Source: a virus (taxonomy: Duplodnaviria; Heunggongvirae; Uroviricota; Caudoviricetes). From it: a stretch of DNA of 32,475 nt. Positions 17,437 through 32,475 of this stretch are shown piece by piece. The position numbers and the translations under genes were made by a program. Each line of letters opens with the position of its first letter. Positions within the stretch are counted from its first letter, which is position 1. Below the pieces are notes generated by a model. The model did no database searches. It worked only from the letters and a program-made list of their open reading frames with translations, and had not been told where the DNA came from. The DNA lies in the IMG/VR virus record IMGVR_UViG_2778261088_000010, positions 1 through 32,475 of that record; one strand, given 5' to 3'.

Positions 17437-17587
17437 TTGTAGTTATCTCTCACCTCGCCAATACAGGAGGTGCAAATTGAGGGAACATCATGTACCGCAA
17501 ATCAGAAGCGGAAACGTAAAAGAGGCCGAGCCAATGGATAACTGCGGTATAGACCAGGCTCAACAAATAGCCGGGGCCAGAAACGAC

Positions 17588-17609
17588 AAACCCGCTCGAC
17601 GGCGGGTTT
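17588..17609 (-). terminator. Hairpin about 150 bp upstream of S; candidate tR'-like terminator
   Basis: A perfect 8-bp inverted repeat (AAACCCGC, 6-nt loop, GCGGGTTT) with a modest U-rich tail on the minus strand. The tR' assignment is a positional inference. Confidence 0.3.
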
Positions 17610-17836
17610 AAGCTGTGTGGCGAAGTGACCACTCTTAACACGATACAATAGTTTTTGCGTACGCGTTAGCATTTTTGATGGAAGTTAATGGTTGTTAATC
17701 TTATACTCAGTAAACAAAATTTATGCCGCCTTGAGCATGATGCGACATTAGGCACATGTTTGGATCTTCCTCGAAGATTCGTGCGGTAGCTATGCTCAAA
17801 ATCCAATCAGCTCATAAAACATACTATGGGTTTTAA

Positions 17837-18586
17837 ATGCTCATTCCAACATCTCTATCAAAACAACCAGTAATCGAAGCTGCTTTCGAAATGCGTTTTT
17901 CTAAAGAAACACAAATATCGGAAATAGTTCCAGGGTTTCTTTTTCACGCTCTAGGTTGTACAAAACCAGTAATTAGTTTACCACCCAGTCAAATACCTAA
18001 AAATGTTCGTGAGGGAGATGAACAATTACATTACGCAGTTGTCAGTCGCCTCGAAATCGAAGGGTACTATATTGGACTAAGTGACCATGGTGTTGTTGTA
18101 TCCACCAGCACCAAATATCAAGGGTGGAGTCATTTTAGAGAAAAAATCATTCATGTATTAAATGAGCTTAACAAATTAAATTTAAATGACAACATCATCC
18201 GCTACTCATTAAAGTATGTAGATTTTTTCCCAAAAGAAGACGATTCTAATTTATTTGATAAGCTAAACGTCAGCTTAAATATGGCTGGCGAGTCTATGTC
18301 TAATTATCCGATCAATATCAGAATCGATAAAAATGAAGGCGCATTTCTAAATATAATTCAAATATTATCTCATGCTTTAGTCATGTCAGATAATGGAGAA
18401 TTTAATAAAAAAGGACTAATCCTAGACATAGACAGCATTAGGCAAATCACTAATACTGATGAAATAGATAAGTTTAAAAACGAACCAAAAAAAATTCTTG
18501 ATGATCTTCACTCCTGTAATAAATTAGCTTTCTTTAGTTGCCTTAAAGAGTCAACAATTCAAGAACTAGAACCATCCTACAAATAG
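17837..18586 (+). CDS. Hypothetical protein, first gene of the AT-rich three-gene cassette
   Basis: A 249-aa ORF on the strand opposite to all flanking phage genes, with strongly AT-biased codon usage. No catalytic motif was recognised by eye. Confidence 0.6.
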   Translation: MLIPTSLSKQPVIEAAFEMRFSKETQISEIVPGFLFHALGCTKPVISLPPSQIPKNVREGDEQLHYAVVSRLEIEGYYIGLSDHGVVVSTSTKYQGWSHFREKIIHVLNELNKLNLNDNIIRYSLKYVDFFPKEDDSNLFDKLNVSLNMAGESMSNYPINIRIDKNEGAFLNIIQILSHALVMSDNGEFNKKGLILDIDSIRQITNTDEIDKFKNEPKKILDDLHSCNKLAFFSCLKESTIQELEPSYK

Positions 18587-18601
18587 AAATGGTGGTATGA
18601 T

Positions 18602-18946
18602 ATGTATCCGTCTCATCATGTTTATCGAGCTCAACTTCAAGTATTAACTTTGGTTTTATATGGTCTGCATATAACTGCATTAACAGACATTGCCCAAAAT
18701 CAACAGCATGGTCCTCAACAAAGTTTAATCGTCAAAAATCACGCTTTGGAGTATAAGTCTTCAACTACCGATTCAGTTCATTCCATCACACAAACATATA
18801 AAGCAGGGAGCACAATCTCAGTTGATCAAAGACTTGCAGTCTCGATGACAAACTTTTATGAAAAATTATCGACAAACCAGGTGTCTTTAGGCAGTGAAAT
18901 AAATAAAGTCGTTCATGCTTCACTGTGGGATTTATACTTGGATTAA
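18602..18946 (+). CDS. Hypothetical protein, second gene of the cassette
   Basis: A 114-aa ORF starting 16 nt after the first gene's stop, with a GGTGG RBS-like motif. It has a hydrophobic N-terminal stretch (LQVLTLVLYGLHITAL). Confidence 0.5.
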   Translation: MYPSHHVYRAQLQVLTLVLYGLHITALTDIAQNQQHGPQQSLIVKNHALEYKSSTTDSVHSITQTYKAGSTISVDQRLAVSMTNFYEKLSTNQVSLGSEINKVVHASLWDLYLD

Positions 18947-19564
18947 GTGATGAGTAATAACATTTTTGATATCGAGAAATTCAAAGATCAAATTCCATAT
19001 TATTTAACAGCTCATCAAAAAGAAGGGCTAATAAATGCACTTAGAGATTTCCCTGAAAACACTAACTACTACCTTAGCAATTATCATGATGATCTGAAAA
19101 ATGCTGCACTTCAGGGAGATATATTTAAGGAGCTTACAGTATATTCAATTAAAGGGACTAAAAAAACACGAGGCATTATATTAAGCAACAGTTGCGATAT
19201 AGATACAAGTAATAATCGTGATGTGCCAATGCGTGCAGTCTTTGCTCCGTTAGTAAGTTTATCTAAGTTCGAAGCTATTCTTCTCTCCAACGGAGTTTCT
19301 AAGACTTCAATAGATAGCAAAATTGATGCTATAAGGAAGCAGTTAATTACTAATATTTTTTATCTTCCTGAATCAGACAACTTAGAAGAATGCATCGTTT
19401 TTCTTGATGATGTATACCAATTACCAACGGAAGAATTACAAAAACTCTTGAATGATAAATGCAAAGCCATAACTTTAAGTCAAGTTGGTTTCTACATTTT
19501 ACTATTCAAAATATCTATTCACTTTTGTAGATTCCATGAAAACATACAACGATTCGATCATTAA
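18947..19564 (+). CDS. Hypothetical protein, third gene of the cassette
   Basis: A 205-aa ORF whose start (GTG at 18947 or ATG at 18950) directly abuts the stop of the second gene. It has a hydrophobic C-terminal segment (VGFYILLFKISIHF). Confidence 0.55.
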   Translation: MMSNNIFDIEKFKDQIPYYLTAHQKEGLINALRDFPENTNYYLSNYHDDLKNAALQGDIFKELTVYSIKGTKKTRGIILSNSCDIDTSNNRDVPMRAVFAPLVSLSKFEAILLSNGVSKTSIDSKIDAIRKQLITNIFYLPESDNLEECIVFLDDVYQLPTEELQKLLNDKCKAITLSQVGFYILLFKISIHFCRFHENIQRFDH

Positions 19565-19565
19565 G

Positions 19566-19588
19566 GCGGTACTACCGCCTTTTATTAT
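19566..19588 (+). terminator. Rho-independent terminator ending the cassette
   Basis: The perfect hairpin GGCGGTACTACCGCC is followed by TTTTATTATTTT on the plus strand, 2 nt after the third gene's stop. Confidence 0.65.
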
Positions 19589-19589
19589 T

Positions 19590-19934
19590 TTACACAAGTA
19601 TACTTACAACCCCCTCTATAAAACCGATTGCGGTTTGCAACTCCTTCCTAATAGTGCCATCAGAGCACCTTCTCCTTTTGGCAATAGTGCGTAATGAGAT
19701 ACCAATAACAAAGTGGGCTATGATGAGCTCATATTCCTCTGGTTTATACTTTCTCAACCGAGCCACACAACTGTCTATCATAATGCCTTCGTCATCATCA
19801 CACTGAATCCGTGACTTTTTGCCATGAGGTAAAAGCCCCTTGAAGCCTGCTGCTACCGGCTGCCAGTCCACACCACTGTTGTCTGCTGCAGCCCATGCTC
19901 CCCAGCGGTCCAATACTTCATACATATCACGCAT
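19590..19934 (-). CDS. Q: Late-gene antiterminator Q (82/DLP12 QuuD-like)
   Basis: The product (MRDMYEVLDRWGAWAAADNSGVDWQPVAAGFKGLL...QCDDD...CSDG) resembles the DLP12/82-type Q as recalled, including a Cys cluster. It sits upstream of the lysis cassette on the late strand. Confidence 0.65.
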   Translation of the reverse strand: MRDMYEVLDRWGAWAAADNSGVDWQPVAAGFKGLLPHGKKSRIQCDDDEGIMIDSCVARLRKYKPEEYELIIAHFVIGISLRTIAKRRRCSDGTIRKELQTAIGFIEGVVSILV

Positions 19935-22818: not shown

Positions 22819-23312
22819 TAAGCCCCCACGTAATTCCCTGACAGATACCACTCATCACCCGGTACAGCGCGCTTGCTGCTTTTCCGTAAACACCGCTCAC
22901 GACGCGCAAGAAAATTGTTTCGCTCTGGCTGGGAGTGGCTTTCACGGAATGCCGCCATCCACACCGTTGCAGCACGACGGTATAAGCCCCTCGACTCCAG
23001 TTCTTCCGCCTGGCGGGTCAGGCACAAAATCACCCGGGGATCGTTAGTGCCGACATAGAAATTGCGCACAGGTCTGGTTTCACGAACTGGTTGCGGTTCC
23101 GCCTCCTGCGCTCTCTCAGTCAGGCGCGGGAAATGTCTGCGTGTATCCCCTTCACAACGGTGAGCCACACGACCACTCTGACGTAACTTGCTTGCTGACT
23201 GCAGAACGCGCTGCCGTGAGTAACCTGCAAAAGCATCCGCAATGTCTCCGGAAGTACACCCCGGATGGGCTTCAATGTATTTCTGAACTTCATTCAAAAG
23301 ACTCATGATCAC
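22818..23312 (-). CDS. Hypothetical nin-region protein (C-terminus possibly PerC/ANR-like)
   Basis: A 164-aa ORF that is translationally coupled to its neighbours. The C-terminal RGLYRRAATVWMAAF...ERNNFLARRERC pattern is reminiscent of PerC/ANR-type regulators; this is a weak call from memory. Confidence 0.4.
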   Translation of the reverse strand: MIMSLLNEVQKYIEAHPGCTSGDIADAFAGYSRQRVLQSASKLRQSGRVAHRCEGDTRRHFPRLTERAQEAEPQPVRETRPVRNFYVGTNDPRVILCLTRQAEELESRGLYRRAATVWMAAFRESHSQPERNNFLARRERCLRKSSKRAVPGDEWYLSGNYVGA

Positions 23313-24127
23313 CCCCTGAATCCTGCCGGGATCTGGCTGTAGTCCACGTTGTCGTAACTGGCTTTGAAGTACGGGTCCTCGCGTCTGGCTGCAGATACCG
23401 CAGGAACTTCCCAGGATTCTTCGAAATGACGATCCGGACCAAAGAACGTGACAGCCTGTTTCACAAATTGTGTGCCGCTGTTACCCATCGCAGATACCCA
23501 GCCCGCGTAGCGTTTCACACCTTCCAGCATGGTTTCGGGGTTTACCCCCTCATTCAAACGGGCTTTCCAGGCTTTGAAGGCTGCAGATTTTGAATTGCCA
23601 CCAGCACGTTTGGGATATACCAGCCATGCCTGCTCAAACTCCGGAGAGTATTCCGGTCGGTTTGAACGAACTCGCACGGACTCATCAACTGATGCACCAA
23701 CAGCTATTGGTTCATTGACTGGTTCTTTGACTGGTTCAAAAGAGTGACTGGTTCTGGGTGAATCTCCTGCACTACCCCCTGGTGCAACTCCTGCACTACC
23801 TGGTGAATTTGCTGCACCAGATAGTGAATTATTTGCACTACCCCCTAGTGAATCTCCTGCACCATCAAGATGAAGGAGATAGATATTACTTGAGTTACCT
23901 TTTTCACCTTTCCGGGTGACTTTTTTTACCAGCCCGGACTCACAAAGGGCCGCAATATGATTCATCACAGAACGTTTGCTAATCTCGCACTGGTCAGCAA
24001 TATGCTGGTAGCTGGGCCAGCACTCACCCTGATCGCTGGCATTATCAGCCAGCTTGATCAGAACCAGTTTTCGCAATGGATTACCCACTCGAATTTTCAT
24101 CGCTTTAACCATCAGCTCCATACTCAT
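23309..24127 (-). CDS. Replication initiator (lambda O-analogue) with an N-terminal HTH and internal repeats
   Basis: The N-terminus has a winged-HTH-like segment (LVLIKLADNASDQGECWPSYQHIADQCEISKRSVMNHI). The central region is encoded by tandem DNA repeats, and the gene sits in the O position. Confidence 0.6.
   Translation of the reverse strand: MSMELMVKAMKIRVGNPLRKLVLIKLADNASDQGECWPSYQHIADQCEISKRSVMNHIAALCESGLVKKVTRKGEKGNSSNIYLLHLDGAGDSLGGSANNSLSGAANSPGSAGVAPGGSAGDSPRTSHSFEPVKEPVNEPIAVGASVDESVRVRSNRPEYSPEFEQAWLVYPKRAGGNSKSAAFKAWKARLNEGVNPETMLEGVKRYAGWVSAMGNSGTQFVKQAVTFFGPDRHFEESWEVPAVSAARREDPYFKASYDNVDYSQIPAGFRG
23711..23869. repeat. Iteron-like direct repeats inside the replication gene (candidate ori)
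   Basis: Three copies of a roughly 13-bp unit (GACTGGTTC...) are followed by five copies of a 21-24-bp unit (GGTGAATCTCCTGCACTACCCCCT and variants). Confidence 0.5.
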
Positions 24128-25189: not shown

Positions 25190-25749
25190 GCGTTAGTTTC
25201 TCCACAGACACAAAACGCCACGACGCCCGGAGCTGCACACTCGCGGGCGTCACTCTTTTCTGGAGCGCAAAAGATTTTGTAGACCAGTGCTGCATGCTCC
25301 TGGAGCTTCGAAATTGACAGATACAACTCATCATTAATTGCTGTCTGCTCGTGTGGCTCCACTACCCCGTCTTCGATTGCCGAACGAATCTGCTTTGAGT
25401 AACTCCCGATCTGTTCGATGACTTCCAGCAGGCGCTGGTTTATATCGGCGTTCTCTACTTCCTCAATTTCAGGAAGCGATACAAACACCCCACCAGCAGA
25501 CTGTGCAACAGCATCCGCAATGTAGTGAGTGCCAGCCGCGCGCTGTAAAATCATTGCCCATCCCAGCGGGAAAATCTGATCGCCATCTGCACGAAGGCGG
25601 TTGAATAAAGCGTTCTCTGTTACATCCAGCCACTCAGCAGCTTCAGCGTACCCCCCCGGCAACGCCGCGATAGTTTTTCTGACAGCTTTCACGTACCACT
25701 CAGGCTGTTTTTCTACTTTCCAGTGATGCTTACCCACGGTTAGCCTCAT
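25186..25749 (-). CDS. Hypothetical early protein in the cII position
   Basis: A 187-aa ORF immediately downstream of cro. The function is not assignable from sequence. Confidence 0.45.
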   Translation of the reverse strand: MRLTVGKHHWKVEKQPEWYVKAVRKTIAALPGGYAEAAEWLDVTENALFNRLRADGDQIFPLGWAMILQRAAGTHYIADAVAQSAGGVFVSLPEIEEVENADINQRLLEVIEQIGSYSKQIRSAIEDGVVEPHEQTAINDELYLSISKLQEHAALVYKIFCAPEKSDARECAAPGVVAFCVCGETNA

Positions 25750-25780
25750 CGTTCTGTGGTTAAAAATTGAAGGTGTTCTG

Positions 25781-25981
25781 TTAATCTTTCGGATAGATAT
25801 CCGGTCTTAAGTCAGATTTCGTAATTGCACCTGACGTGCATTGCTCAAGTTTTTTAGCCAGCACAAAACTGGCTTTTTTATAACCATTGAAAACCAGCCG
25901 TAAGTAGCCTGGTGTTGAGCCAACTTTTCCGGCCAACTCGCCCTGCTGTTCTTTGGTTAAAGAGTCCCAATACGCTTTCAT
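25781..25981 (-). CDS. cro: Cro-like HTH repressor
   Basis: The 66-aa product from the internal Met (MKAYWDSLTKEQQGELAGKVGSTPGYLRLVFNGYKK...) has a strong RBS (GGAGGT) 8 nt upstream. It is divergent from the cI-like gene. Confidence 0.7.
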   Translation of the reverse strand: MKAYWDSLTKEQQGELAGKVGSTPGYLRLVFNGYKKASFVLAKKLEQCTSGAITKSDLRPDIYPKD

Positions 25982-26071
25982 ACAATATGTACCTCCGATA
26001 TACATATTACATGATTGAGATGAACCTTCAAGATACTTGTACCCTATCGGTACAAAGGTTTTAATTTCGTT
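25982..26071. promoter_or_regulatory. Divergent promoter/operator region between cro and cI (OR-like)
   Basis: Contains the perfect inverted repeat TTGTACC-ctatc-GGTACAA and a further TGTACC half-site. Confidence 0.45.
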
Positions 26072-26746
26072 ATGAAAACAGTCCATGACATCCGGCGGTC
26101 TAACGCCAGAAAACTGAGAGATGGTGTTGGCGGGAATTCTTCCTTTGCCACCATGATTGATCGCGAGCCAACCCAGACCAGCAGGTTTATGGGAGATGGT
26201 GCTACTAAAAATATCGGTGACAGCATGGCACGGCACATCGAAAAATGTTTCGACCTGCCTGTCGGATGGCTTGATCAAGAACACCAGACAACAAACATCA
26301 CAAAAAAACCTGATGTTTCAATTACTAACAAACAAATAACGTTAGTCCCTGTCATATCATGGGTACAGGCCGGAGCATGGAAAGAAGTTGGCTATTCTGA
26401 GGTTGATTTGAGCACAGCAGAAACTTATCCCTGCCCTGTACCCTGTGGCGAAATGACTTATATCTTGCGGGTGATTGGTGATTCAATGATTGATGAGTAC
26501 CGCCCGGGAGACATGATTTTTGTAGATCCTGAAGTCCCTGCCTGCCACGGTGACGACGTTATTGCATTGATGCACAATTCAGGCGAAACCACCTTCAAGC
26601 GGTTGATAGAAGATGGAACACAGCGTTATCTCAAAGCATTAAACCCAAACTGGCCTGAGCCTTACATTAAGATTAACGGTAATTGCTCTATAATTGGTAC
26701 AGTGATTTTCTCGGGAAAACCAAGAAGATACACAATAAAGGCCTAA
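26072..26746 (+). CDS. cI: cI-like repressor (N-terminal HTH plus C-terminal LexA/S24 autopeptidase)
   Basis: The C-terminal domain carries the S24 motifs (GDSM with Ser, and a Lys in TFKRL). The N-terminus is HTH-like. It is divergent from cro. Confidence 0.85.
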   Translation: MKTVHDIRRSNARKLRDGVGGNSSFATMIDREPTQTSRFMGDGATKNIGDSMARHIEKCFDLPVGWLDQEHQTTNITKKPDVSITNKQITLVPVISWVQAGAWKEVGYSEVDLSTAETYPCPVPCGEMTYILRVIGDSMIDEYRPGDMIFVDPEVPACHGDDVIALMHNSGETTFKRLIEDGTQRYLKALNPNWPEPYIKINGNCSIIGTVIFSGKPRRYTIKA

Positions 26747-26758
26747 TCAATATTTATG

Positions 26759-26781
26759 AACCTGCTTCGGCAGGTTTTTTT
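26759..26781 (+). terminator. Rho-independent terminator after cI
   Basis: The hairpin CCTGCTTCGGCAGG is followed by TTTTTTT. Confidence 0.6.
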
Positions 26782-27224
26782 ATACTTGACAATGTACCTA
26801 TGAGATACATAATGTATCTAAAAGAAACATGGCACAGGCAAGATTAAAACAAAATTTGGTTGTAACACGGCGTATGGCACATGCGTCGTTAGCGGTCTGG
26901 TGACGTTAAAGGGGACAATCCACTCCTTGCTCGGGCAAACAAACCAGGTAGCCGGAATGTGCAAGTCAATGATGATGCTGATAAGACGCCTAACCAGCGT
27001 GGCGATTCGGTTTGACACCTGGGAAGAGACCAGGGTGCAACGATGAGAGCATTTATGGAGCCGCGACAAAGTGTGGTGCCGTAACAGGCTAAGTGCTCTC
27101 AGCGTTGTGGTAATCCGCGAAATGGCGCGGCGGTAAGTATGGCGGGGTTACTCTTTCCCCGTTGAGGACACCGGATTGTCAGGTTGACCATACGCCTGAG
27201 TGACAACCCCACCACAACAGCCAC

Positions 27225-27275
27225 TGCTTTGGCGGTACCAGTTTGTACACTTGCTTCCGGCTGGTACCGCTCTTT
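27225..27275. promoter_or_regulatory. Candidate OL/pL-like operator region
   Basis: A 10-bp inverted repeat (GCGGTACCAG...CTGGTACCGC) flanks TTTGTACAC, re-using the GTAC-containing half-site seen at OR. It is followed by TCTTTTTACAAAAC and lies upstream of the first leftward early gene. Confidence 0.35.
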
Positions 27276-27414
27276 TTACAAAACAGAGAAGAACATCATC
27301 GGACGACGGGCTCATAACCCAATCCATCCGGGCGGCTGCCACCGCAGGTGTTCTTCTCTGTTTTGTGGAGAAACTAACCGACCTTGCAGGGTCGATATGA
27401 TGAGGAGCAGCAAA

Positions 27415-27777
27415 ATGGCTAGTGAACGCAGTACTGATGTGCAGGCATTTATCGGGGAGCTGGACGGCGGCGTATTTGAAACCAAAATCGGCGCAGTTCT
27501 AAGTGAAGTCGCTTCCGGTGTGATGAACACGAAAACCAAAGGGAAGGTCTCACTCAATCTGGAAATCGAACCGTTTGATGAGAACCGTGTGAAAATCAAA
27601 CACAAACTCTCATATGTTCGCCCGACTAACCGCGGGAAAATTTCCGAAGAAGACACCACCGAAACGCCGATGTATGTCAATCGCGGTGGTCGCCTGACTA
27701 TTCTGCAGGAAGACCAGGGACAATTACTGACTCTTGCCGGTGAACCTGACGGAAAACTCCGCGCAGCTGGTCGTTAA
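27415..27777 (+). CDS. Hypothetical early protein (YfdP-like, 120 aa)
   Basis: A strong RBS (GAGGAG) lies 6 nt before the ATG at 27415. The track's longer N-terminal extension has no RBS and is rejected. Size and neighbourhood match the yfdP-yfdQ-yfdR arrangement of cryptic prophage CPS-53 as I recall it. Confidence 0.55.
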   Translation: MASERSTDVQAFIGELDGGVFETKIGAVLSEVASGVMNTKTKGKVSLNLEIEPFDENRVKIKHKLSYVRPTNRGKISEEDTTETPMYVNRGGRLTILQEDQGQLLTLAGEPDGKLRAAGR

Positions 27778-27842
27778 TATCGTTTTTAATAAACTGATTA
27801 TTTATCTCATCACTGAATATCTTTATATAGTGAGGACTTATT

Positions 27843-28667
27843 ATGTCTCAGAACTTAGACGCAACCGCAATTAATCAAATCCATGCCCTTATTTCTGCTC
27901 AGGGTGTTAATGAAATTATCAGTAAGATTGGTGCCGATGCTGTGGCATTGCCTGAGAACTTCCGCATTCATGATCTGGAAAAATTTAATTTAAATCGCTT
28001 CCGTTTCCGTGGTGCGCTTTCCACTGCCAGCATCGATGACTTTACCCGTTATTCTAAAGATCTTGCAAATGAAGGCACCCGCTGCTTTATCGATGCCGAT
28101 AATATGCGTGCCGTCAGTGTGCTTAACCTGGGTACTATTGATGAACCAGGTCACGCAGATAACACCGCCACTCTCAAACTGAAAAAGACAGCACCGTTCT
28201 CTGCTCTGTTGTCTGTTAACGGCGAGCGTAACTCCCAGAAGTCACTGGCAGAATGGATTGAAGACTGGGCCGACTACCTTGTAGGCTTTGATGCTAATGG
28301 TGACGCTATTCAGGCAACAAAAGCGGCTGCGGCTGTCCGTAAAATCACGATTGAAGCAAACCAGACCGCTGATTTTGAAGATAATGACTTCAGCGGAAAA
28401 CGCTCCCTGATGGAGTCTGTCGAAGCGAAGACCAAAGATATTATGCCAGTGGCATTTGAATTTAAATGCGTTCCGTTTGAAGGTCTGAAAGAACGTCCGT
28501 TTAAATTACGCCTCAGCATTATCACTGGCGATCGTCCTGTACTGGTTCTGCGCATTATTCAGTTGGAAGCAGTCCAGGAAGAAATGGCTAACGAATTTCG
28601 TGATCTGCTTGTTGAGAAATTCAAAGACAGCAAAGTAGAAACCTTTATTGGTACTTTCACCGCCTGA
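27843..28667 (+). CDS. Hypothetical protein (YfdQ-like, 274 aa)
   Basis: A 274-aa ORF; length and neighbourhood fit YfdQ of CPS-53 (from memory). Confidence 0.6.
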
Positions 28668-28794
28668 TTTCATTGCTGCAAATGCCCCTGCGGGGGCATT
28701 TATGGAAACGTAATTGACTCAACAATCGCCTGATGGCGAGGGCTTCCTTTTACCCGAATTCAGCGCGGTGCAGCGCATATACGTGGAGAACAAA

Positions 28795-29331
28795 ATGTCA
28801 TTTATTAAAACTTTTTCCGGGAAGCATTTTTATTATGACAAGATAAATAAAGACGACATCGTGATTAACGATATCGCGGTTTCCCTTTCAAATATCTGCC
28901 GCTTTGCCGGTCATCTTTCTCACTTCTACAGCGTCGCCCAACATGCGGTGCTTTGCAGCCAGCTGGTGCCGCAGGAATTTGCTTTTGAAGCGTTAATGCA
29001 TGATGCAACAGAAGCGTATTGCCAGGACATCCCCGCACCACTGAAACGCCTTCTTCCTGACTATAAACGGATGGAAGAAAAAATAGACGCAGTAATCCGT
29101 GAGAAATACGAGTTGCCCCCGGTTATGAGTACGCCTGTGAAATATGCCGATCTAATCATGCTGGCAACCGAACGCCGTGATCTCGGGCTTGATGATGGCT
29201 CTTTCTGGCCTGTACTGGAAGGTATCCCGGCAACAGAGATGTTCAAAGTTATTCCACTGGCACCGGGCCATGCCTACGGGATGTTTATGGAACGCTTTAA
29301 CGAGTTATCAGAGTTACGCACATACGCATGA
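28795..29331 (+). CDS. HD-domain phosphohydrolase (YfdR-like, 178 aa)
   Basis: His and His-Asp motifs are present (VAQHAV...LMHDATEA), typical of HD-domain nucleotidases. A GGAG RBS precedes the ATG at 28795. Confidence 0.7.
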   Translation: MSFIKTFSGKHFYYDKINKDDIVINDIAVSLSNICRFAGHLSHFYSVAQHAVLCSQLVPQEFAFEALMHDATEAYCQDIPAPLKRLLPDYKRMEEKIDAVIREKYELPPVMSTPVKYADLIMLATERRDLGLDDGSFWPVLEGIPATEMFKVIPLAPGHAYGMFMERFNELSELRTYA

Positions 29332-29365
29332 GTCTTTCAACTGTACAACCGCTGGAGGGGAAGCA

Positions 29366-29560
29366 ATGAACAACTTAATGACAACAAAACAAGTCGCCGA
29401 ATTCTGTGGCGTTTCAATATCGACGGTTCTTCGCTGGAACAGCGTAAACAGGAGAACTGGCCAGAAATACAGGCCTGACTTTCCAGATCCTGATATTAAA
29501 TCCTGCCCAAATAAATGGGCATCACGCAAGATATACAGGTTTGCTGGTGTTATTGAATAA
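29366..29560 (+). CDS. xis: Excisionase / AlpA-family small DNA-binding protein
   Basis: A 64-aa product (MNNLMTTKQVAEFCGVSISTVLRW...) with an HTH core and a strong RBS (GGAGGGG). It lies upstream of the integrase. Confidence 0.6.
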   Translation: MNNLMTTKQVAEFCGVSISTVLRWNSVNRRTGQKYRPDFPDPDIKSCPNKWASRKIYRFAGVIE

Positions 29561-29806
29561 TGTGTCTTAGCTCAGATGTGAACAGACACATTTAGAACAC
29601 AGAGTTAAATCTAATCTGACGGTCTAATCTCTATCAAAAACAGACGATTATTGTGTGACTTTTATTGATAAATTTAGCTGGCGTTTAATTCTGCAATACT
29701 GAAGATAAAACGTTCATTTTGCTTAAAAATCCACCTCATAAGCATGACATAACAGAAAAGAAATGTTACATTTGAGGATTGTTTATCAATAAAAATTGGG
29801 GACTGT

Positions 29807-31102
29807 ATGAAGCAAAATAGTACAATTTCGTCTGTTTTTAAGATATCACGAGATCTTCCCGAAAACTATGTCATTAGAAAAGATATAGATGATAAATTCA
29901 TTGAGGCACTGACTCAAGAAACACATGTCGTAATTTATGGCAGCTCAAAACAAGGTAAAACATCCTTAAGAAAAAAGAATCTTCTTCCAGAAGATTATAT
30001 CGATATTACATGTTCAAACACTTGGAAACTGGAAGATATTCACGTTGCAATTTTAAAAAAAATTGGCTATCAAGTTTCAACTTCACAATCCAAAACCTTA
30101 AAAGGCTCAGCTAAGGTAAAAATAGGAATAAATATTCCTTTCATTCATAAAACATCACTTGATTTAACTGGGGATGCTGCAAAAACGATTAATAAAAAAA
30201 ATATTGAATTAGATCCTGGGGATGTCAATGACATAATTACTTCTTTAGAAGAGGTCAATTTCAATAAAATTATTGTTATCGAAGACTTTCACTATCTTCC
30301 AGAACAAACGCAAATTGATTTCTCTGTGGCATTAAAAGCCTTTCATGAATCATCTAAACTTTGTTTTATTATTGTTGGAGTATGGCTGGAAGAGGATAAA
30401 CTAACAACATTTAATGGTGACTTAGCAGGAAGAGTTGTTTCCATTAATGCTGACCGCTGGGAGAAAGAAGACGTATATAAACTATTTGAGAATAGCGAGA
30501 AGTTACTTAACATTAAATTTGATGAAAAATTTAAATCAGATATTATTGAAAAATGTAATGGAAGTATTTTTTTAGTTCAACAGTTATGTTTTAAAGCATG
30601 TGAATTAGAACAGATAAATAATAGCCAAGGTGAACTTAAGATTGTAGGTAAAAATTTTTTAGTTGAAGATGAAATAAAAAAACTAATCAATGAACAATAC
30701 TCAAGATATTTCAAATTTTTAACCGATTTTAGCTGTGGATTTGATCAGACCTCACTTGAATTATACAAATGGATTTTGTATGTTCTGATTACTGTTGAAC
30801 AACGTTATCTTGAAATAGGTGTGCCTGAGGCTGCTATTAGGCGGTTAATTCAAGAAAAACACCCTAAAAAAACAGAAGTTTCACAAAAAAAATTAAGACA
30901 GGCGCTACGAAAGTCTGTTGATCTCCAAGTAAAAATATCTATTAAACCTATTGTTTTTGAGTTTGACTCCAGTTCATCCAGAATTAAGATAGTTGATAGA
31001 CCATTTATATTATGGCGATCGTATCAAAATCAAGATGATCTATACGGATACGCAGATCTATCAGATGATTTAAAAACCAATATTATTACTACTGGATATT
31101 AA
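29807..31102 (+). CDS. P-loop NTPase (AAA-like ATPase) of unknown function in an AT-rich island
   Basis: Walker A (VVIYGSSKQGKTSL) and Walker B (KIIVIEDFHYL) motifs are present. The gene is very AT-rich, with AT-rich flanks, and is inserted between xis and int. Confidence 0.7.
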   Translation: MKQNSTISSVFKISRDLPENYVIRKDIDDKFIEALTQETHVVIYGSSKQGKTSLRKKNLLPEDYIDITCSNTWKLEDIHVAILKKIGYQVSTSQSKTLKGSAKVKIGINIPFIHKTSLDLTGDAAKTINKKNIELDPGDVNDIITSLEEVNFNKIIVIEDFHYLPEQTQIDFSVALKAFHESSKLCFIIVGVWLEEDKLTTFNGDLAGRVVSINADRWEKEDVYKLFENSEKLLNIKFDEKFKSDIIEKCNGSIFLVQQLCFKACELEQINNSQGELKIVGKNFLVEDEIKKLINEQYSRYFKFLTDFSCGFDQTSLELYKWILYVLITVEQRYLEIGVPEAAIRRLIQEKHPKKTEVSQKKLRQALRKSVDLQVKISIKPIVFEFDSSSSRIKIVDRPFILWRSYQNQDDLYGYADLSDDLKTNIITTGY

Positions 31103-31213
31103 TGCATAATTAGCGTAGGCCTGTAAATATAATACTATCCCATACCAAAATAGATATAATTAGTTATGTAGATGACCTCCCTTTGGTGAAAACAAGCTAA
31201 TTATCCTCACTAC

Positions 31214-31249
31214 TTTGAATAAAGTGCCCGCTTCTCGTTTAAGGCGGGC
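31214..31249 (-). terminator. Hairpin plus U-rich tract downstream of int
   Basis: On the minus strand the hairpin GCCCGC-(12 nt)-GCGGGC starts 3 nt after the int stop and is followed by ACTTTATTC. Confidence 0.4.
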
Positions 31250-31251
31250 TG

Positions 31252-32475
31252 TCAGTTAGAGTCTGAATTAGTACAAGTAACAATCGATTCAACTCTCTCC
31301 CACCATGCCTGGTAGGCTTTACGCTGTTCTTCTAGATAATCGCTCTTGTCATAAACTTGCCATACCCCTGGCAGTTTATGACCTAGCATTATTTCTGCAA
31401 TATGAGGCGCAGTAAGATCAGAAAAGTTTGTTCGTGCTGTTCGCCTCAAATCATGAAGAGACCAATGAGGGAATTGATACCCCAAACGCCGCCATGCGTA
31501 CTGCATTAAATTGTAAGGCAGCGACTGCAATGATGTCCGACCAACGGGTTCCCTGCTTCCTTCCTTAGTAAAAAGCATATCGGAACCATTGTTCATAGAA
31601 ATAGCGTACTTTATAAGCTCTTCAACCGGTTCAATAATGGGCCGCTTTAGCGGTTCGCCCGTTATCTCCCCAGTCTTATGTCGTTCTGGTGGTACAGTCC
31701 ATACTTTATTAATGAAATCAAAATCGTCCACCCTGGCGGTAATTAGCTCTGAACTACGGCAGCCAAAATGCAGCAATAGTTTAATGAAGGCCCGGTATTT
31801 AGGAACCATTCGAGAACCATCGATCGCAGCATAAAGGATTTTAATTTCATCATGTGTCAGAAACCGTTTCTTCTGACCTTTACGGATATCCATATCTTTA
31901 CCCGTGATATCCGACAGCGGGCGAGTTTCAATGAGCTTTCTCTTATACGCCCAGACATGGGCCTGCTTTGCGTTAATTAGCAATCGGTCTGCTATTGCTG
32001 GAGTCTTAGTGCTAAGAGGCTCCAGGACTTCTAACCAATCATGCAATGTAGCTGCATCGTGAGGGATATTCCCGATTTTAGAGAACAGGTGCAGCTCAAA
32101 CGAGCGGAGTATCTGTTCAGAGCCTTTTTTATTTTTTACACAATATGCTTCATACCAGGCACGGATCACAGACTCTACCGTCATGGCTTCAGTAGCTTTT
32201 CGTTTTTCAGCCTGCTTGACCAATCGTGGATTACGGTTTGACTCGAGTTCACCACGGAGACGGATAACTTCTTCTCTGGCCTCTTTTAATCCAGTTGCCG
32301 GGTAAGTTCCGATATCAAGACGCTCACCTTTCCCTGCCCATTGATAACGATATTGGAACACTACGCGACCTTTCGGTGATACTCTGACAGACAGACCATC
32401 ACGATCGGATTTAACCAAAACCTTATCACGTTCCTTTCCAACGACTGAACGCAACCACGCATCAGACAGCGCCAT
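31252..32475 (-). CDS. int: Tyrosine integrase, P4-type
   Basis: A 407-aa product. The N-terminus fits the P4-integrase arm-binding domain pattern (GLSVRVSPKGRVVFQYRYQWAGKGERLDIGTYP). The C-terminus has the catalytic LHDLRRTARTN (HxxR) box and a candidate catalytic Tyr. The start codon is the last triplet of the window. Confidence 0.9.
   Translation of the reverse strand: MALSDAWLRSVVGKERDKVLVKSDRDGLSVRVSPKGRVVFQYRYQWAGKGERLDIGTYPATGLKEAREEVIRLRGELESNRNPRLVKQAEKRKATEAMTVESVIRAWYEAYCVKNKKGSEQILRSFELHLFSKIGNIPHDAATLHDWLEVLEPLSTKTPAIADRLLINAKQAHVWAYKRKLIETRPLSDITGKDMDIRKGQKKRFLTHDEIKILYAAIDGSRMVPKYRAFIKLLLHFGCRSSELITARVDDFDFINKVWTVPPERHKTGEITGEPLKRPIIEPVEELIKYAISMNNGSDMLFTKEGSREPVGRTSLQSLPYNLMQYAWRRLGYQFPHWSLHDLRRTARTNFSDLTAPHIAEIMLGHKLPGVWQVYDKSDYLEEQRKAYQAWWERVESIVTCTNSDSN

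Follow-up and report, generated by a model that had tools for sequence, protein, structure and literature searches.

The yfdP-yfdQ-yfdR genes of a lambdoid prophage and the structured leader RNA upstream of them

In the window analyzed here, the whole stretch of 32,475 nucleotides of IMG/VR record IMGVR_UViG_2778261088_000010, an apparently complete prophage carries downstream of its cI-like repressor gene three consecutive genes for proteins of 120, 274 and 178 residues. The question raised by this locus is what these proteins do for the phage and how expression of the operon is controlled. The initial annotation described the genes as a nucleotidase cluster of the leftward early operon, and pointed to a likeness to yfdPQR of the K-12 prophage CPS-53.

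Identity of the yfdPQR block and layout of the operon

All three open reading frames were present on the + strand (Table 1). This likeness was then checked by BLASTP against the proteins translated from b2359, b2360 and b2361 of K-12 MG1655, and turned out to be near-identity: 118 of 120 residues (98%) are the same for YfdP (b2359), 271 of 274 (99%) for YfdQ (b2360), and 173 of 178 (97%, E=2e-134, full length) for YfdR (b2361), the window YfdR thus differing from the K-12 protein by five substitutions. The ATG start of yfdP has GAGGAG 8 nt upstream, and the same start is found in homologues of other genera, while the start of yfdR is an ATG within a 205-aa TTG-started reading frame. By megablast, the 1917-bp block was detected in 3012 of 5426 complete E. 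coli genomes, where the matching blocks are annotated as yfdP, yfdQ and yfdR (5'-deoxynucleotidase), and also in 49 phage records, including SfV, SfIV and Stx2c phages. These matches identify the block as the yfdP-yfdQ-yfdR module already known from SfV/CPS-53-type lambdoid prophages. With such near-identity to catalogued genes, which bear RefSeq names and occur in over half of the complete E. coli genomes, the three-gene observation is ordinary, and nothing in the genes themselves is new.

Table 1. Positions of the features in the window, with the evidence for each
Feature	Position	Strand	Description and evidence
Replication initiator of the phage	23309-24127	-	O-like/DnaD-like
cI-like repressor gene	26072..26746	+	Peptidase_S24 autocleavage domain, Pfam PF00717 E=2.6e-26; same layout in SfV
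Intrinsic-terminator-like hairpin and T-run	26758..26777	+	closes the cI transcript; terminator scan
pL-like sigma-70 promoter	26786..26813	+	TTGACA, 16 nt, CATAAT; 11/12; promoter scan
Operator-like site TGTACCTATGAGATACA	26793-26809	+	between the promoter hexamers; putative function
Terminator-like hairpin GGCGGTACCAG ... CTGGTACCGC, then TCTTTTT	27231..27277	+	RNA fold
Structured leader element, 126 nt	27271..27396	+	23-bp outer helix enclosing two inner helices
yfdP	27415-27777	+	120 aa; K-12 YfdP 98% identity, PHROG 204
yfdQ	27843-28667	+	274 aa; DUF2303 family, Pfam PF10065 E=1.6e-92
8-bp GC-rich hairpin AAATGCCC ctgc GGGGCATTT	28681..28700	+	in the 127-nt yfdQ-yfdR spacer; RNA fold
yfdR	28795-29331	+	178 aa; HD-domain protein, PHROG 318 E=3.8e-108
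xis	29366..29560	+	excisionase, 64 aa; PHROG 1553 E=2.3e-35; last gene of the leftward block

The order of elements is cI, terminator, promoter with operator-like site, leader, yfdPQR and xis. The SfV site homologous to the hairpin behind cI is annotated as a putative rho-independent terminator. The sequence TGTACC-N5-GGTACA occurs only three times in the window, twice in the cro/cI spacer (25988 and 26038) and once at 26793 inside the promoter. Because yfdPQR lie downstream of cI and behind a strong promoter with an operator-like site, placement in the leftward early operon, as given in the initial annotation, is supported; the locus is best read as a repressor-controlled lambda-type leftward early (pL) operon, in which yfdPQR would be the first genes in their normal position. 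Within the 668 nt between cI and yfdP, no ATG-started reading frame of at least 60 aa was found on the + strand; the longer frames there start with GTG or TTG, and one of them is an in-frame extension of yfdP. Neither an N gene nor nutL was recognized as a first operon element by inspection of reading frames and Rfam matches, a weak negative. The hairpin behind yfdQ is followed by no proper T-run, and the whole yfdQ-yfdR spacer showed no extra stability over shuffled sequences (z = -1.15); the K-12 literature names the operon 'yfdPQ'. Since tblastn with K-12 YfdS and YfdT gave no match anywhere in the window, xis adjoins yfdR directly.

The HD protein YfdR and the YfdP-YfdQ pair

The metal ligands H50, H69, D70 and D119 of YfdR, and its pocket residues R36, F37 and D78, are each conserved in 108-109 of 109 aligned homologues. 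These positions correspond to H33, H68, D69 and D137, and to R18, W19 and D77, respectively, of E. coli YfbR, for which the metal and substrate residues and the HD motif definitions were taken from PMC8177086. The 178-aa sequence has no histidine between D70 and D119, and YfdR lacks the HD-GYP-type extended motif H..HD..H..HH..D with extra His ligands as defined in the same paper. YfdR is thus predicted to be an HD-domain phosphohydrolase with a mononuclear metal site. The HD assignment of the initial annotation is borne out by this conservation, together with the near-identity to YfdPQR; its proposal of action on signalling nucleotides gained no support from a mononuclear phosphatase motif without histidine between D70 and D119. 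YfdR scored 24.7 bits against Pfam PF12917 (YfbR family; cutoff 25.9) and 20 bits against NCBIfam NF003009 (YfbR equivalog; cutoff 122), below the cutoff in both cases, and is classified by these scores as a relative within the HD superfamily and not as a YfbR orthologue. The nearest solved structure, found by the family profile, is Atu1052 (PDB 2gz4, E=3e-23).

What is known of YfdR function comes from K-12. In the sole functional paper, which ties the block to inhibited DnaA-dependent initiation (Noguchi and Katayama; PMC4776307), YfdR is reported to have weak, low-affinity 5'-deoxynucleotidase activity, and to bind DnaA domain I directly at Phe46, on the surface used by DiaA and DnaB. Initiation at oriC was blocked by multicopy yfdQ and yfdR plus either yfdS or yfdT. 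The effect was observed only on multicopy or overexpression, deletion of yfdQRST gave no replication phenotype, and purified YfdR alone did not inhibit open-complex formation in vitro. Both the 5'-deoxynucleotidase activity and the binding to DnaA domain I may be shared by the window protein. DnaA binding with oriC inhibition is the best-documented activity of K-12 YfdR beyond the weak dNMPase, and did not appear in the initial annotation.

The term 'nucleotidase cluster' was too wide, as YfdR is the sole HD protein of the three; YfdP and YfdQ belong to unrelated non-HD families. YfdP matches PHROG 204 over its full length (E=1.2e-49), and its near-identical homologues carry the precomputed annotation PF27127. 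YfdQ matches PF10065 with 310 bits (cutoff 26.6) over residues 7-272 of 274. No NCBIfam model was found for either. The AF2 model of YfdP (mean pLDDT 70.7) consists of a helix and a three-stranded sheet, with a C-terminal part that is conserved but modelled at low confidence; that of YfdQ had a mean pLDDT of 76.5. In Foldseek searches against the PDB, neither model gave a match at E<0.001, the top TM-scores being at most 0.42 for YfdP and 0.17 for YfdQ, and against BFVD the YfdQ model matched confidently only other DUF2303 or unnamed phage proteins. An exhaustive profile search with YfdQ yielded 1760 DUF2303 sequence clusters; no longer multi-domain relative was present among the best 150, leaving no fusion clue to function.

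An IMG/VR scan with the YfdQ alignment confirmed 579 loci, and the 80 that were kept are E. coli prophage copies of 99-100% identity. Since these copies are nearly the same, a collection with one genome per species was used instead for diversity. Among 71 genome loci, yfdP is immediately upstream of yfdQ in 69, and yfdR follows the pair in 58. The two genes are obligate neighbours. They stay together across a range that takes in E. coli, Vibrio, Halomonas and Hahella, and the pair is still kept in phages of Vibrio and Halomonas, where identity is about 40%. This conservation, the lack of any solved-fold match and the large number of DUF2303 clusters place yfdP-yfdQ among the more common early-gene pairs of temperate phages that still lack an explanation.

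A conserved leader RNA upstream of yfdP

The only unexpected part of the locus is a conserved, folded leader RNA just upstream of yfdPQR. A terminator-like hairpin is followed by a 126-nt element (Table 1), which also has a 3' hairpin (27379-27395) adjoining the ribosome-binding site of yfdP. In its 23-bp outer helix, 27274-27298 pairs with 27346-27371. For the 231 nt from 27190 to 27420, including the upstream hairpin, the minimum free energy was -91.2 kcal/mol, compared with -64.0 +/- 4.9 for shuffled sequences (z = -5.6). The element covaries across genera of Enterobacterales: compensatory changes were detected in 14 of 42 pairs against 4.0 +/- 1.4 in shuffled alignments (0 of 500 reached this number), and 96.6% of the cells are paired. 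The hairpin and its T-run are also present in the leaders of other genera, where the stem sequences differ and yet stay complementary. A covariance model built for the element matched the window once, at 123.6 bits, and in 48 of the 71 loci it had a match immediately before yfdP. The Rfam scan of 25500-31500 at E<=1 gave no match in the operon or the leader. In phage SfII the leader is retained directly before yfdR, with yfdPQ missing. A boxA-like string, CGCTCTTTTTACAA, spotted by eye after the leader hairpin, was discarded, not being conserved as such in other genera. The leader (27231-27396) lies outside the segment 27415-29331 covered by the initial annotation.

The conserved leader probably sets the level of transcription or translation entering the operon. 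We tentatively suggest, as a possibility rated somewhat below even, that these approximately 165 nt represent an undescribed class of cis-regulatory RNA, in which the U-tract of a terminator-like hairpin doubles as the 5' half of a 23-bp helix that covaries, followed by two enclosed helices and a hairpin on the side of the ribosome-binding site. Across Enterobacterales, lambdoid phages of the SfV type that lack N might use this RNA as a gate through which pL transcription or translation reaches the early-left operon; the gated genes would include YfdP-YfdQ as a two-protein unit, with no assignable fold, acting with YfdR on host DNA replication. The conserved, covarying leader may show how N-less lambdoid phages control their leftward early operon.

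Possible roles of the module and comparison with known systems

As to the role of the genes, we lean toward an early-operon module in which YfdR and YfdQ, probably with YfdP, damp DnaA-dependent initiation of the host, a phage role that we infer and consider rather probable. Upon cleavage of the repressor, transcription of the operon would start at the pL-like promoter, and the transcript would pass through the terminator-like hairpin and the three-helix element of the leader. YfdR would then damp host initiation, with help from YfdQ and probably also from YfdP, its obligate partner, so that DnaB and the replication machinery are left to the O-like/DnaD-like initiator of the phage; the dNMPase activity would be a secondary or ancestral function. 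As no solved fold matches either the YfdP or the YfdQ model, what these two contribute to the mechanism is a guess. Points against a DnaA-directed role are the restriction of the K-12 effect to multicopy or overexpression, the lack of a phenotype on deletion and of inhibition in vitro, and the need of the K-12 initiation block for yfdS or yfdT, both of which the window lacks; an intact prophage naturally without yfdS and yfdT makes a good test case for the DnaA link.

YfdR might instead act purely as an enzyme, either dephosphorylating dNMPs and thereby reshaping nucleotide pools or destroying signalling nucleotides of defence systems, with DnaA binding as an artefact of overexpression. Reshaping of pools by dNMP dephosphorylation is the activity of Dmp, the pre-early 5'-deoxyribonucleotidase of phage T5. 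Such a role agrees with the intact and nearly invariant catalytic and substrate residues, with the family names given by RefSeq and PHROGs (5'-deoxynucleotidase or dNMP phosphatase), and with homologues in 333 phage records, including large virulent and jumbo phages of unrelated hosts for which E. coli DnaA is irrelevant, a distribution that argues for general nucleotide metabolism over a DnaA-specific function. In addition, yfdR is absent from 13 of the 71 yfdPQ loci; being dispensable for yfdPQ and separable from them in SfII, it behaves as an independent enzyme gene. Against this stand the nucleotide affinities of YfdR, which are far below those of YfbR in the citation of Zimmerman 2008 given by PMC4776307, and the finding that deletion of yfdR did not raise the CMP yield of an engineered strain. 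Destruction of signalling nucleotides is also disfavored by the mononuclear H..HD..D motif. No PADLOC model matched YfdP, YfdQ or YfdR, which is weak evidence, as PADLOC holds defence and not anti-defence proteins. On balance we regard a purely enzymatic role as unlikely, though it is the most serious of the alternatives.

Two further explanations seem far less probable than this one. YfdP and YfdQ, with or without YfdR, might be a DNA recombination or repair module in place of lambda exo-bet-gam, as suggested by a map position that matches that of the lambda red genes, by a window with RusA as the only candidate and no recognizable recombinase, by the SSB and DnaQ-like exonuclease genes that flank the pair in other phages and prophages, and by the reported weak sensitivity of a yfdQ deletion to MMS and H2O2 (PMC4776307). 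However, Stx2a phage P13374 carries the pair alongside a complete gam-recT-exo-ssb set, and DUF2303 coexists with RecT and YqaJ in Burkholderia phage JC1. Replacement of a recombinase was ruled out as the main reading on account of this coexistence, and we hold such a module to be very improbable. The Foldseek result points the same way, since neither model resembles any solved structure. Single-strand annealing proteins, SSBs and nucleases are all represented in the PDB. Slightly less credible still are passenger genes without a phage role, domesticated by the host for stress tolerance as has been proposed for cryptic CPS-53. The genes do persist in the defective CPS-53 remnant of K-12, where SrsR, a regulator of the host, binds between yfdO and yfdP and switches yfdPQ on in stationary phase, and deletion of CPS-53 or of yfdQ leads to H2O2 sensitivity (PMC4776307). 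The block analyzed here, in contrast, belongs to a prophage whose structural, lysis, replication and immunity modules are all complete, and is carried by isolated plaque-forming phages. Its gene order and RNA leader are conserved over many genera, down to about 40% protein identity, which points to selection within phage genomes.

Compared with known systems, YfdR shares with E. coli YfbR (PDB 2PAQ) the mononuclear H..HD..D metal site and the Arg, aromatic and Asp positions of the substrate pocket, with Phe37 in place of Trp19, but the two are only distantly related (24% identity over 59 residues; hhalign probability 69%). By position, the leader is analogous to lambda N/nut and HK022 put, as a candidate transcribed cis-acting element between a pL-type promoter and the first leftward gene, and the window phage resembles HK022 in having no recognizable N gene. 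The put analogy was put to a direct check and set aside, as the covariance model gave no match in HK022. Unlike the lambda and HK022 signals, the leader is present in a single copy, with none for a further early operon, and the element follows a terminator-like hairpin instead of preceding terminators; no boxB-type hairpin was recognized.

In K-12 CPS-53 (KpLE1), the three genes differ from those of the window neither in order nor in spacing, and their proteins are 98%, 99% and 97% identical. There, yfdR is followed by yfdS, yfdT, ypdJ and torI, whereas in the window it is followed by a different excisionase of 64 aa. In K-12, moreover, yfdO, a truncated replication gene, has been joined by a deletion to a point about 30 nt before yfdP, and K-12 consequently lacks both the promoter and the structured leader found in the window. 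Another close counterpart is the early-left region of Shigella phage SfV, with the order cI, orf33, orf32, orf31, orf30, orf29, orf28, xis and int. Unlike the window, SfV has orf33 between promoter and leader and the yfdS and yfdT homologues orf29 and orf28, and its int is co-oriented, whereas int of the window lies on the opposite strand and a low-GC gene is inserted between xis and int. Common to both are the end of cI, the terminator, the promoter sequence and the leader element, and orf32, orf31 and orf30 are yfdP, yfdQ and yfdR at 97% DNA identity.

Identity of the yfdPQR genes and their proposed early operon

Three consecutive ORFs on the + strand, each preceded by a Shine-Dalgarno-like sequence at normal spacing, encode the proteins of 120, 274 and 178 aa reported in the initial annotation (see table). 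Using the translated genes of the CPS-53 region of E. coli K-12 MG1655 as reference, identity was observed at 118 of 120 residues for YfdP, 271 of 274 for YfdQ and 173 of 178 for YfdR, so that the likeness to CPS-53 yfdPQR given in the initial annotation proved accurate. A search of complete E. coli genomes with the 1917-bp block gave 3019 matching records, identity being at least 90% in all but 3; together they represent 3012 of the 5426 genomes. Copy number per genome had a median of one and reached seven. The block is also present in 49 phage records, with SfV, SfIV, phage 2H10, cdtI and many Stx2c-converting phages among them. RefSeq names the genes yfdP, yfdQ and yfdR (5'-deoxynucleotidase). 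As judged from sequence, the window genes are a rediscovery of catalogued, already known genes. Two modest leads merit a record, namely the YfdP-YfdQ pair, which is still unexplained, and the leader RNA upstream of yfdP, which carries no annotation.

The window is a lambdoid prophage. It carries head and tail genes like those of lambda, together with a lysis cassette, Q, RusA, an O-like/DnaD-like initiator, cII-like, cro and cI. The operator-like inverted repeat TGTACC-N5-GGTACA gave only three matches across the window, two in the cro/cI spacer (25988-26054) and the third (26793-26809) inside the pL-like promoter, flanked by its −35 and −10 hexamers. The S24-type repressor may bind at these sites, which are placed as would be expected of OR and OL operators. 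The proposed reading of this block as a leftward early operon is thus supported, at the level of sequence, by promoter, operator-like sites and gene order.

Two low-GC islands were noted elsewhere in the window. Between xis and the oppositely oriented integrase, an island of 30-33% GC (flanks, about 46%) surrounds a 431-aa ORF (29807-31102, +), probably a defence moron carried by the prophage. This ORF gave E=2.7e-73 with PDC-S59, a candidate defence model of PADLOC, and a weak match to AAA_22. The second island (17500-19600, 33-38% GC) carries three ORFs without a PADLOC match, the two scanned belonging to PHROGs 5464 and 4575, where function is unassigned.

Features of the leftward block and of the second low-GC island
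Feature	Position	Strand	Remark
ORF of second island	17837-18586	+	opposed to neighbouring late and Q genes
ORF of second island	18602-18946	+	opposed to neighbouring late and Q genes
ORF of second island	18947-19564	+	opposed to neighbouring late and Q genes
cI	26072-26746	+	start of leftward block order
Terminator	26758-26777	+	putative; directly after cI in order
Promoter TTGACA, 16 nt, CATAAT	26786-26813	+	best promoter match in region
Leader, ~600 nt	between promoter and yfdP	+	followed by yfdPQR
Terminator-like hairpin, GC-rich, then U-run	27231-27277	+	RNA fold
Three-helix element, 126 nt	27271-27396	+	covariance model, 123.6 bits
yfdP	27415-27777	+	120 aa
yfdQ	27843-28667	+	274 aa
yfdR	28795-29331	+	178 aa from ATG within mechanical 205-aa TTG ORF
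Excisionase, 64 aa	after yfdPQR	+	end of listed order

YfdR and the YfdP-YfdQ pair

YfdR belongs by sequence to the HD superfamily and to the YfdR family. Matches to Pfam were below threshold (YfbR-like, 24.7 bits; HD_3, 17.1 bits), and PHROG 318 ('deoxyribonucleoside 5' monophosphate phosphatase') was matched at E=3.8e-108. The sole solved relative by sequence was Atu1052 (PDB 2gz4; E=2e-12 with the single sequence, 3e-23 with the family profile). YfdR was rejected as a YfbR orthologue, since it scored 20 bits against the NCBIfam YfbR equivalog (cutoff, 122) and was alignable with YfbR around the HD core only (24% over 59 residues; hhalign probability 69%). Despite this remote relationship, the catalytic constellation is complete. 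H50, H69, D70 and D119 correspond to the YfbR Co2+ ligands H33, H68, D69 and D137, and R36, F37 and D78 to the deoxyribose-specificity residues R18, W19 and D77 (PMC8177086). These catalytic and specificity positions are kept in 108-109 of 109 aligned family members, in line with the original HD-domain assignment. The suggested action on signalling nucleotides fared less well: no His lies between D70 and D119 of the 178-aa sequence, so it lacks the extended motif that marks phosphodiesterase-type HD proteins, which argues against cyclic-nucleotide hydrolysis.

YfdQ matches DUF2303 over its full length (E=1.6e-92), and YfdP belongs to PHROG 204 and PF27127. At 50% identity, DUF2303 formed about 1760 clusters in an exhaustive profile search; nearly all of the top 150 were single-domain proteins of about 270 aa, with a few shorter fragments, and thus offered no informative fusions. 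The literature found mentioning DUF2303 gives no biochemistry for it. AlphaFold2 models were of moderate confidence (pLDDT 76.5 for YfdQ, 70.7 for YfdP). Neither matched a PDB fold at E<0.001, and the YfdQ model matched only other DUF2303 or unnamed phage proteins in BFVD. The YfdP model consists of an N-terminal helix and a three-stranded sheet; the C-terminal half (EEDTTETPMYVNRGG..LT.LQEDQGQL) is strongly conserved and modelled at low confidence, which would fit folding on a partner.

Adjacency of the two genes is obligate in sequence comparison. Among 71 loci from a one-genome-per-species collection, yfdP lies immediately 5' of yfdQ in 69, the two exceptions being truncated matches, and yfdR comes next in 58. 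Where yfdR is missing, the next gene encodes SSB (Proteus columbae, Hahella), a DnaQ-like exonuclease (Sodalis, Mangrovibacter) or a TraR/DksA-type zinc finger, or else xis-int comes next. The pair is kept at about 40% identity in a Halomonas phage and in Vibrio phage 34E29.1, there between a DnaQ-like exonuclease gene and ssb, and follows gam-recT-exo-ssb in Stx2a phage P13374. Burkholderia phage JC1 encodes RecT, YqaJ and a DUF2303 protein, the last detected in virions. This neighbourhood associates yfdP-yfdQ with DNA-metabolism genes. The window encodes no recombinase except RusA; the pair as a Red/RecT recombinase substitute was rejected, given that such genes co-occur with the pair in P13374 and with a DUF2303 gene in JC1. 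The P13374 yfdP homologue (locus L157, 4594-4934) is spread over two frames, one holding residues 3-48 and the other residues 40-116, with two small ORFs annotated; the cause would be a frameshift mutation or else a fault of sequencing or annotation.

Structured leader RNA

The final ~215 nt 5' of yfdP are near-identical in the window, SfV and an E. coli prophage of different immunity region. The RNA from 27190 to 27420 (231 nt) folds at −91.2 kcal/mol, against −64.0 ± 4.9 in shuffles (z = −5.6). A long helix, whose 18-nt arms (ACAAAACAGAGAAGAACA and TGTTCTTCTCTGTTTTGT) pair perfectly, encloses two smaller helices, and another hairpin abuts the yfdP ribosome-binding site. Leaders of yfdP homologues in other genera keep this architecture with stem sequences that are different yet complementary. 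RNAalifold predicted 41 pairs with compensatory changes in 14. In the 12-sequence core alignment 96.6% of cells were paired, and double changes were observed in 14 of 42 pairs, against 4.0 ± 1.4 in shuffles (0/500) and at most 7 with slid partners. We regard the structure, which covaries across genera of the Enterobacterales, as real.

The covariance model built from this alignment detected a single copy in the window. On the + strand it exceeded 100 bits in 30 of the 71 loci, ending about 20 nt before yfdP; a further 18, those of Serratia, Yersinia and Proteus among them, scored 21-51 bits. Strong matches were also found in SfV, phage Kati and E. coli MS21324, and none in HK022. Scores of minus-strand matches at the same places were much weaker, in keeping with the many hairpins of the element. 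No Rfam match was found. In SfII (locus L161, 2501-3298), which lacks yfdP and yfdQ, the structured leader lies directly 5' of yfdR, indicating that it belongs to the operon and not to yfdP alone; SfII, a natural yfdPQ deletion, is a possible comparison strain. The leader could serve attenuation, antitermination, RNase III processing or translational control. About 300 nt 5' of yfdP lies the motif TCAGCGTTGTGGTAATCCGCG (27099-27120, +), which reads TTAGCGTTGTGGTGAATGCGG in SfV; a close variant occurs in the E. coli prophage with different immunity, and similar forms in leaders of other genera (loci L088 and L126).

Possible role and comparison with K-12 and Shigella phages

The sequence establishes gene identity, the obligate yfdP-yfdQ adjacency, an intact HD site, the arrangement of promoter and operator-like sites, and covariation in the leader. 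After induction, the operon would be expressed early; YfdR and YfdQ, probably with YfdP, may then interfere with DnaA-DnaB/DiaA contacts, which would favour the phage's own initiator. The K-12 orthologues bind DnaA and inhibit initiation on overexpression: yfdQ-yfdR-yfdS-yfdT is a multicopy suppressor of hda-185 over-initiation, and YfdR alone binds DnaA, with Phe46 of DnaA being important, and competes moderately with DiaA and DnaB (Noguchi and Katayama, PMC4776307). In vitro, opening of oriC was inhibited by YfdQRST-enriched extracts but not by purified YfdR alone, and deletion of these genes gave no replication phenotype (PMC4776307).

The chief alternative is that YfdR acts only as an enzyme of nucleotide metabolism, a reading kept in play by the spread of its homologues among unrelated and virulent phages (333 records). 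[quoted passage not shown] DnaA interference and enzymatic activity are not mutually exclusive. Published work further describes weak MMS and H2O2 sensitivity of yfdQ mutants (PMC4776307), activation of the K-12 'yfdPQ' operon by the host regulator SrsR and, in a preprint, a link of yfdQ to control of an active phage in BW25113.

For DnaA interference, the gene content after yfdR matters, because the initiation block in K-12 required one of yfdS and yfdT (PMC4776307). Neither is in the window, where yfdR runs straight (29331-29366) to an excisionase different from that of K-12. In contrast, yfdR is followed by yfdS (DUF551) and yfdT in K-12 (CPS-53 locus L001, 11512-12179), SfV and SfII. SfV shares the promoter, leader and gene order of the window and additionally carries orf33 and the yfdS and yfdT homologues.
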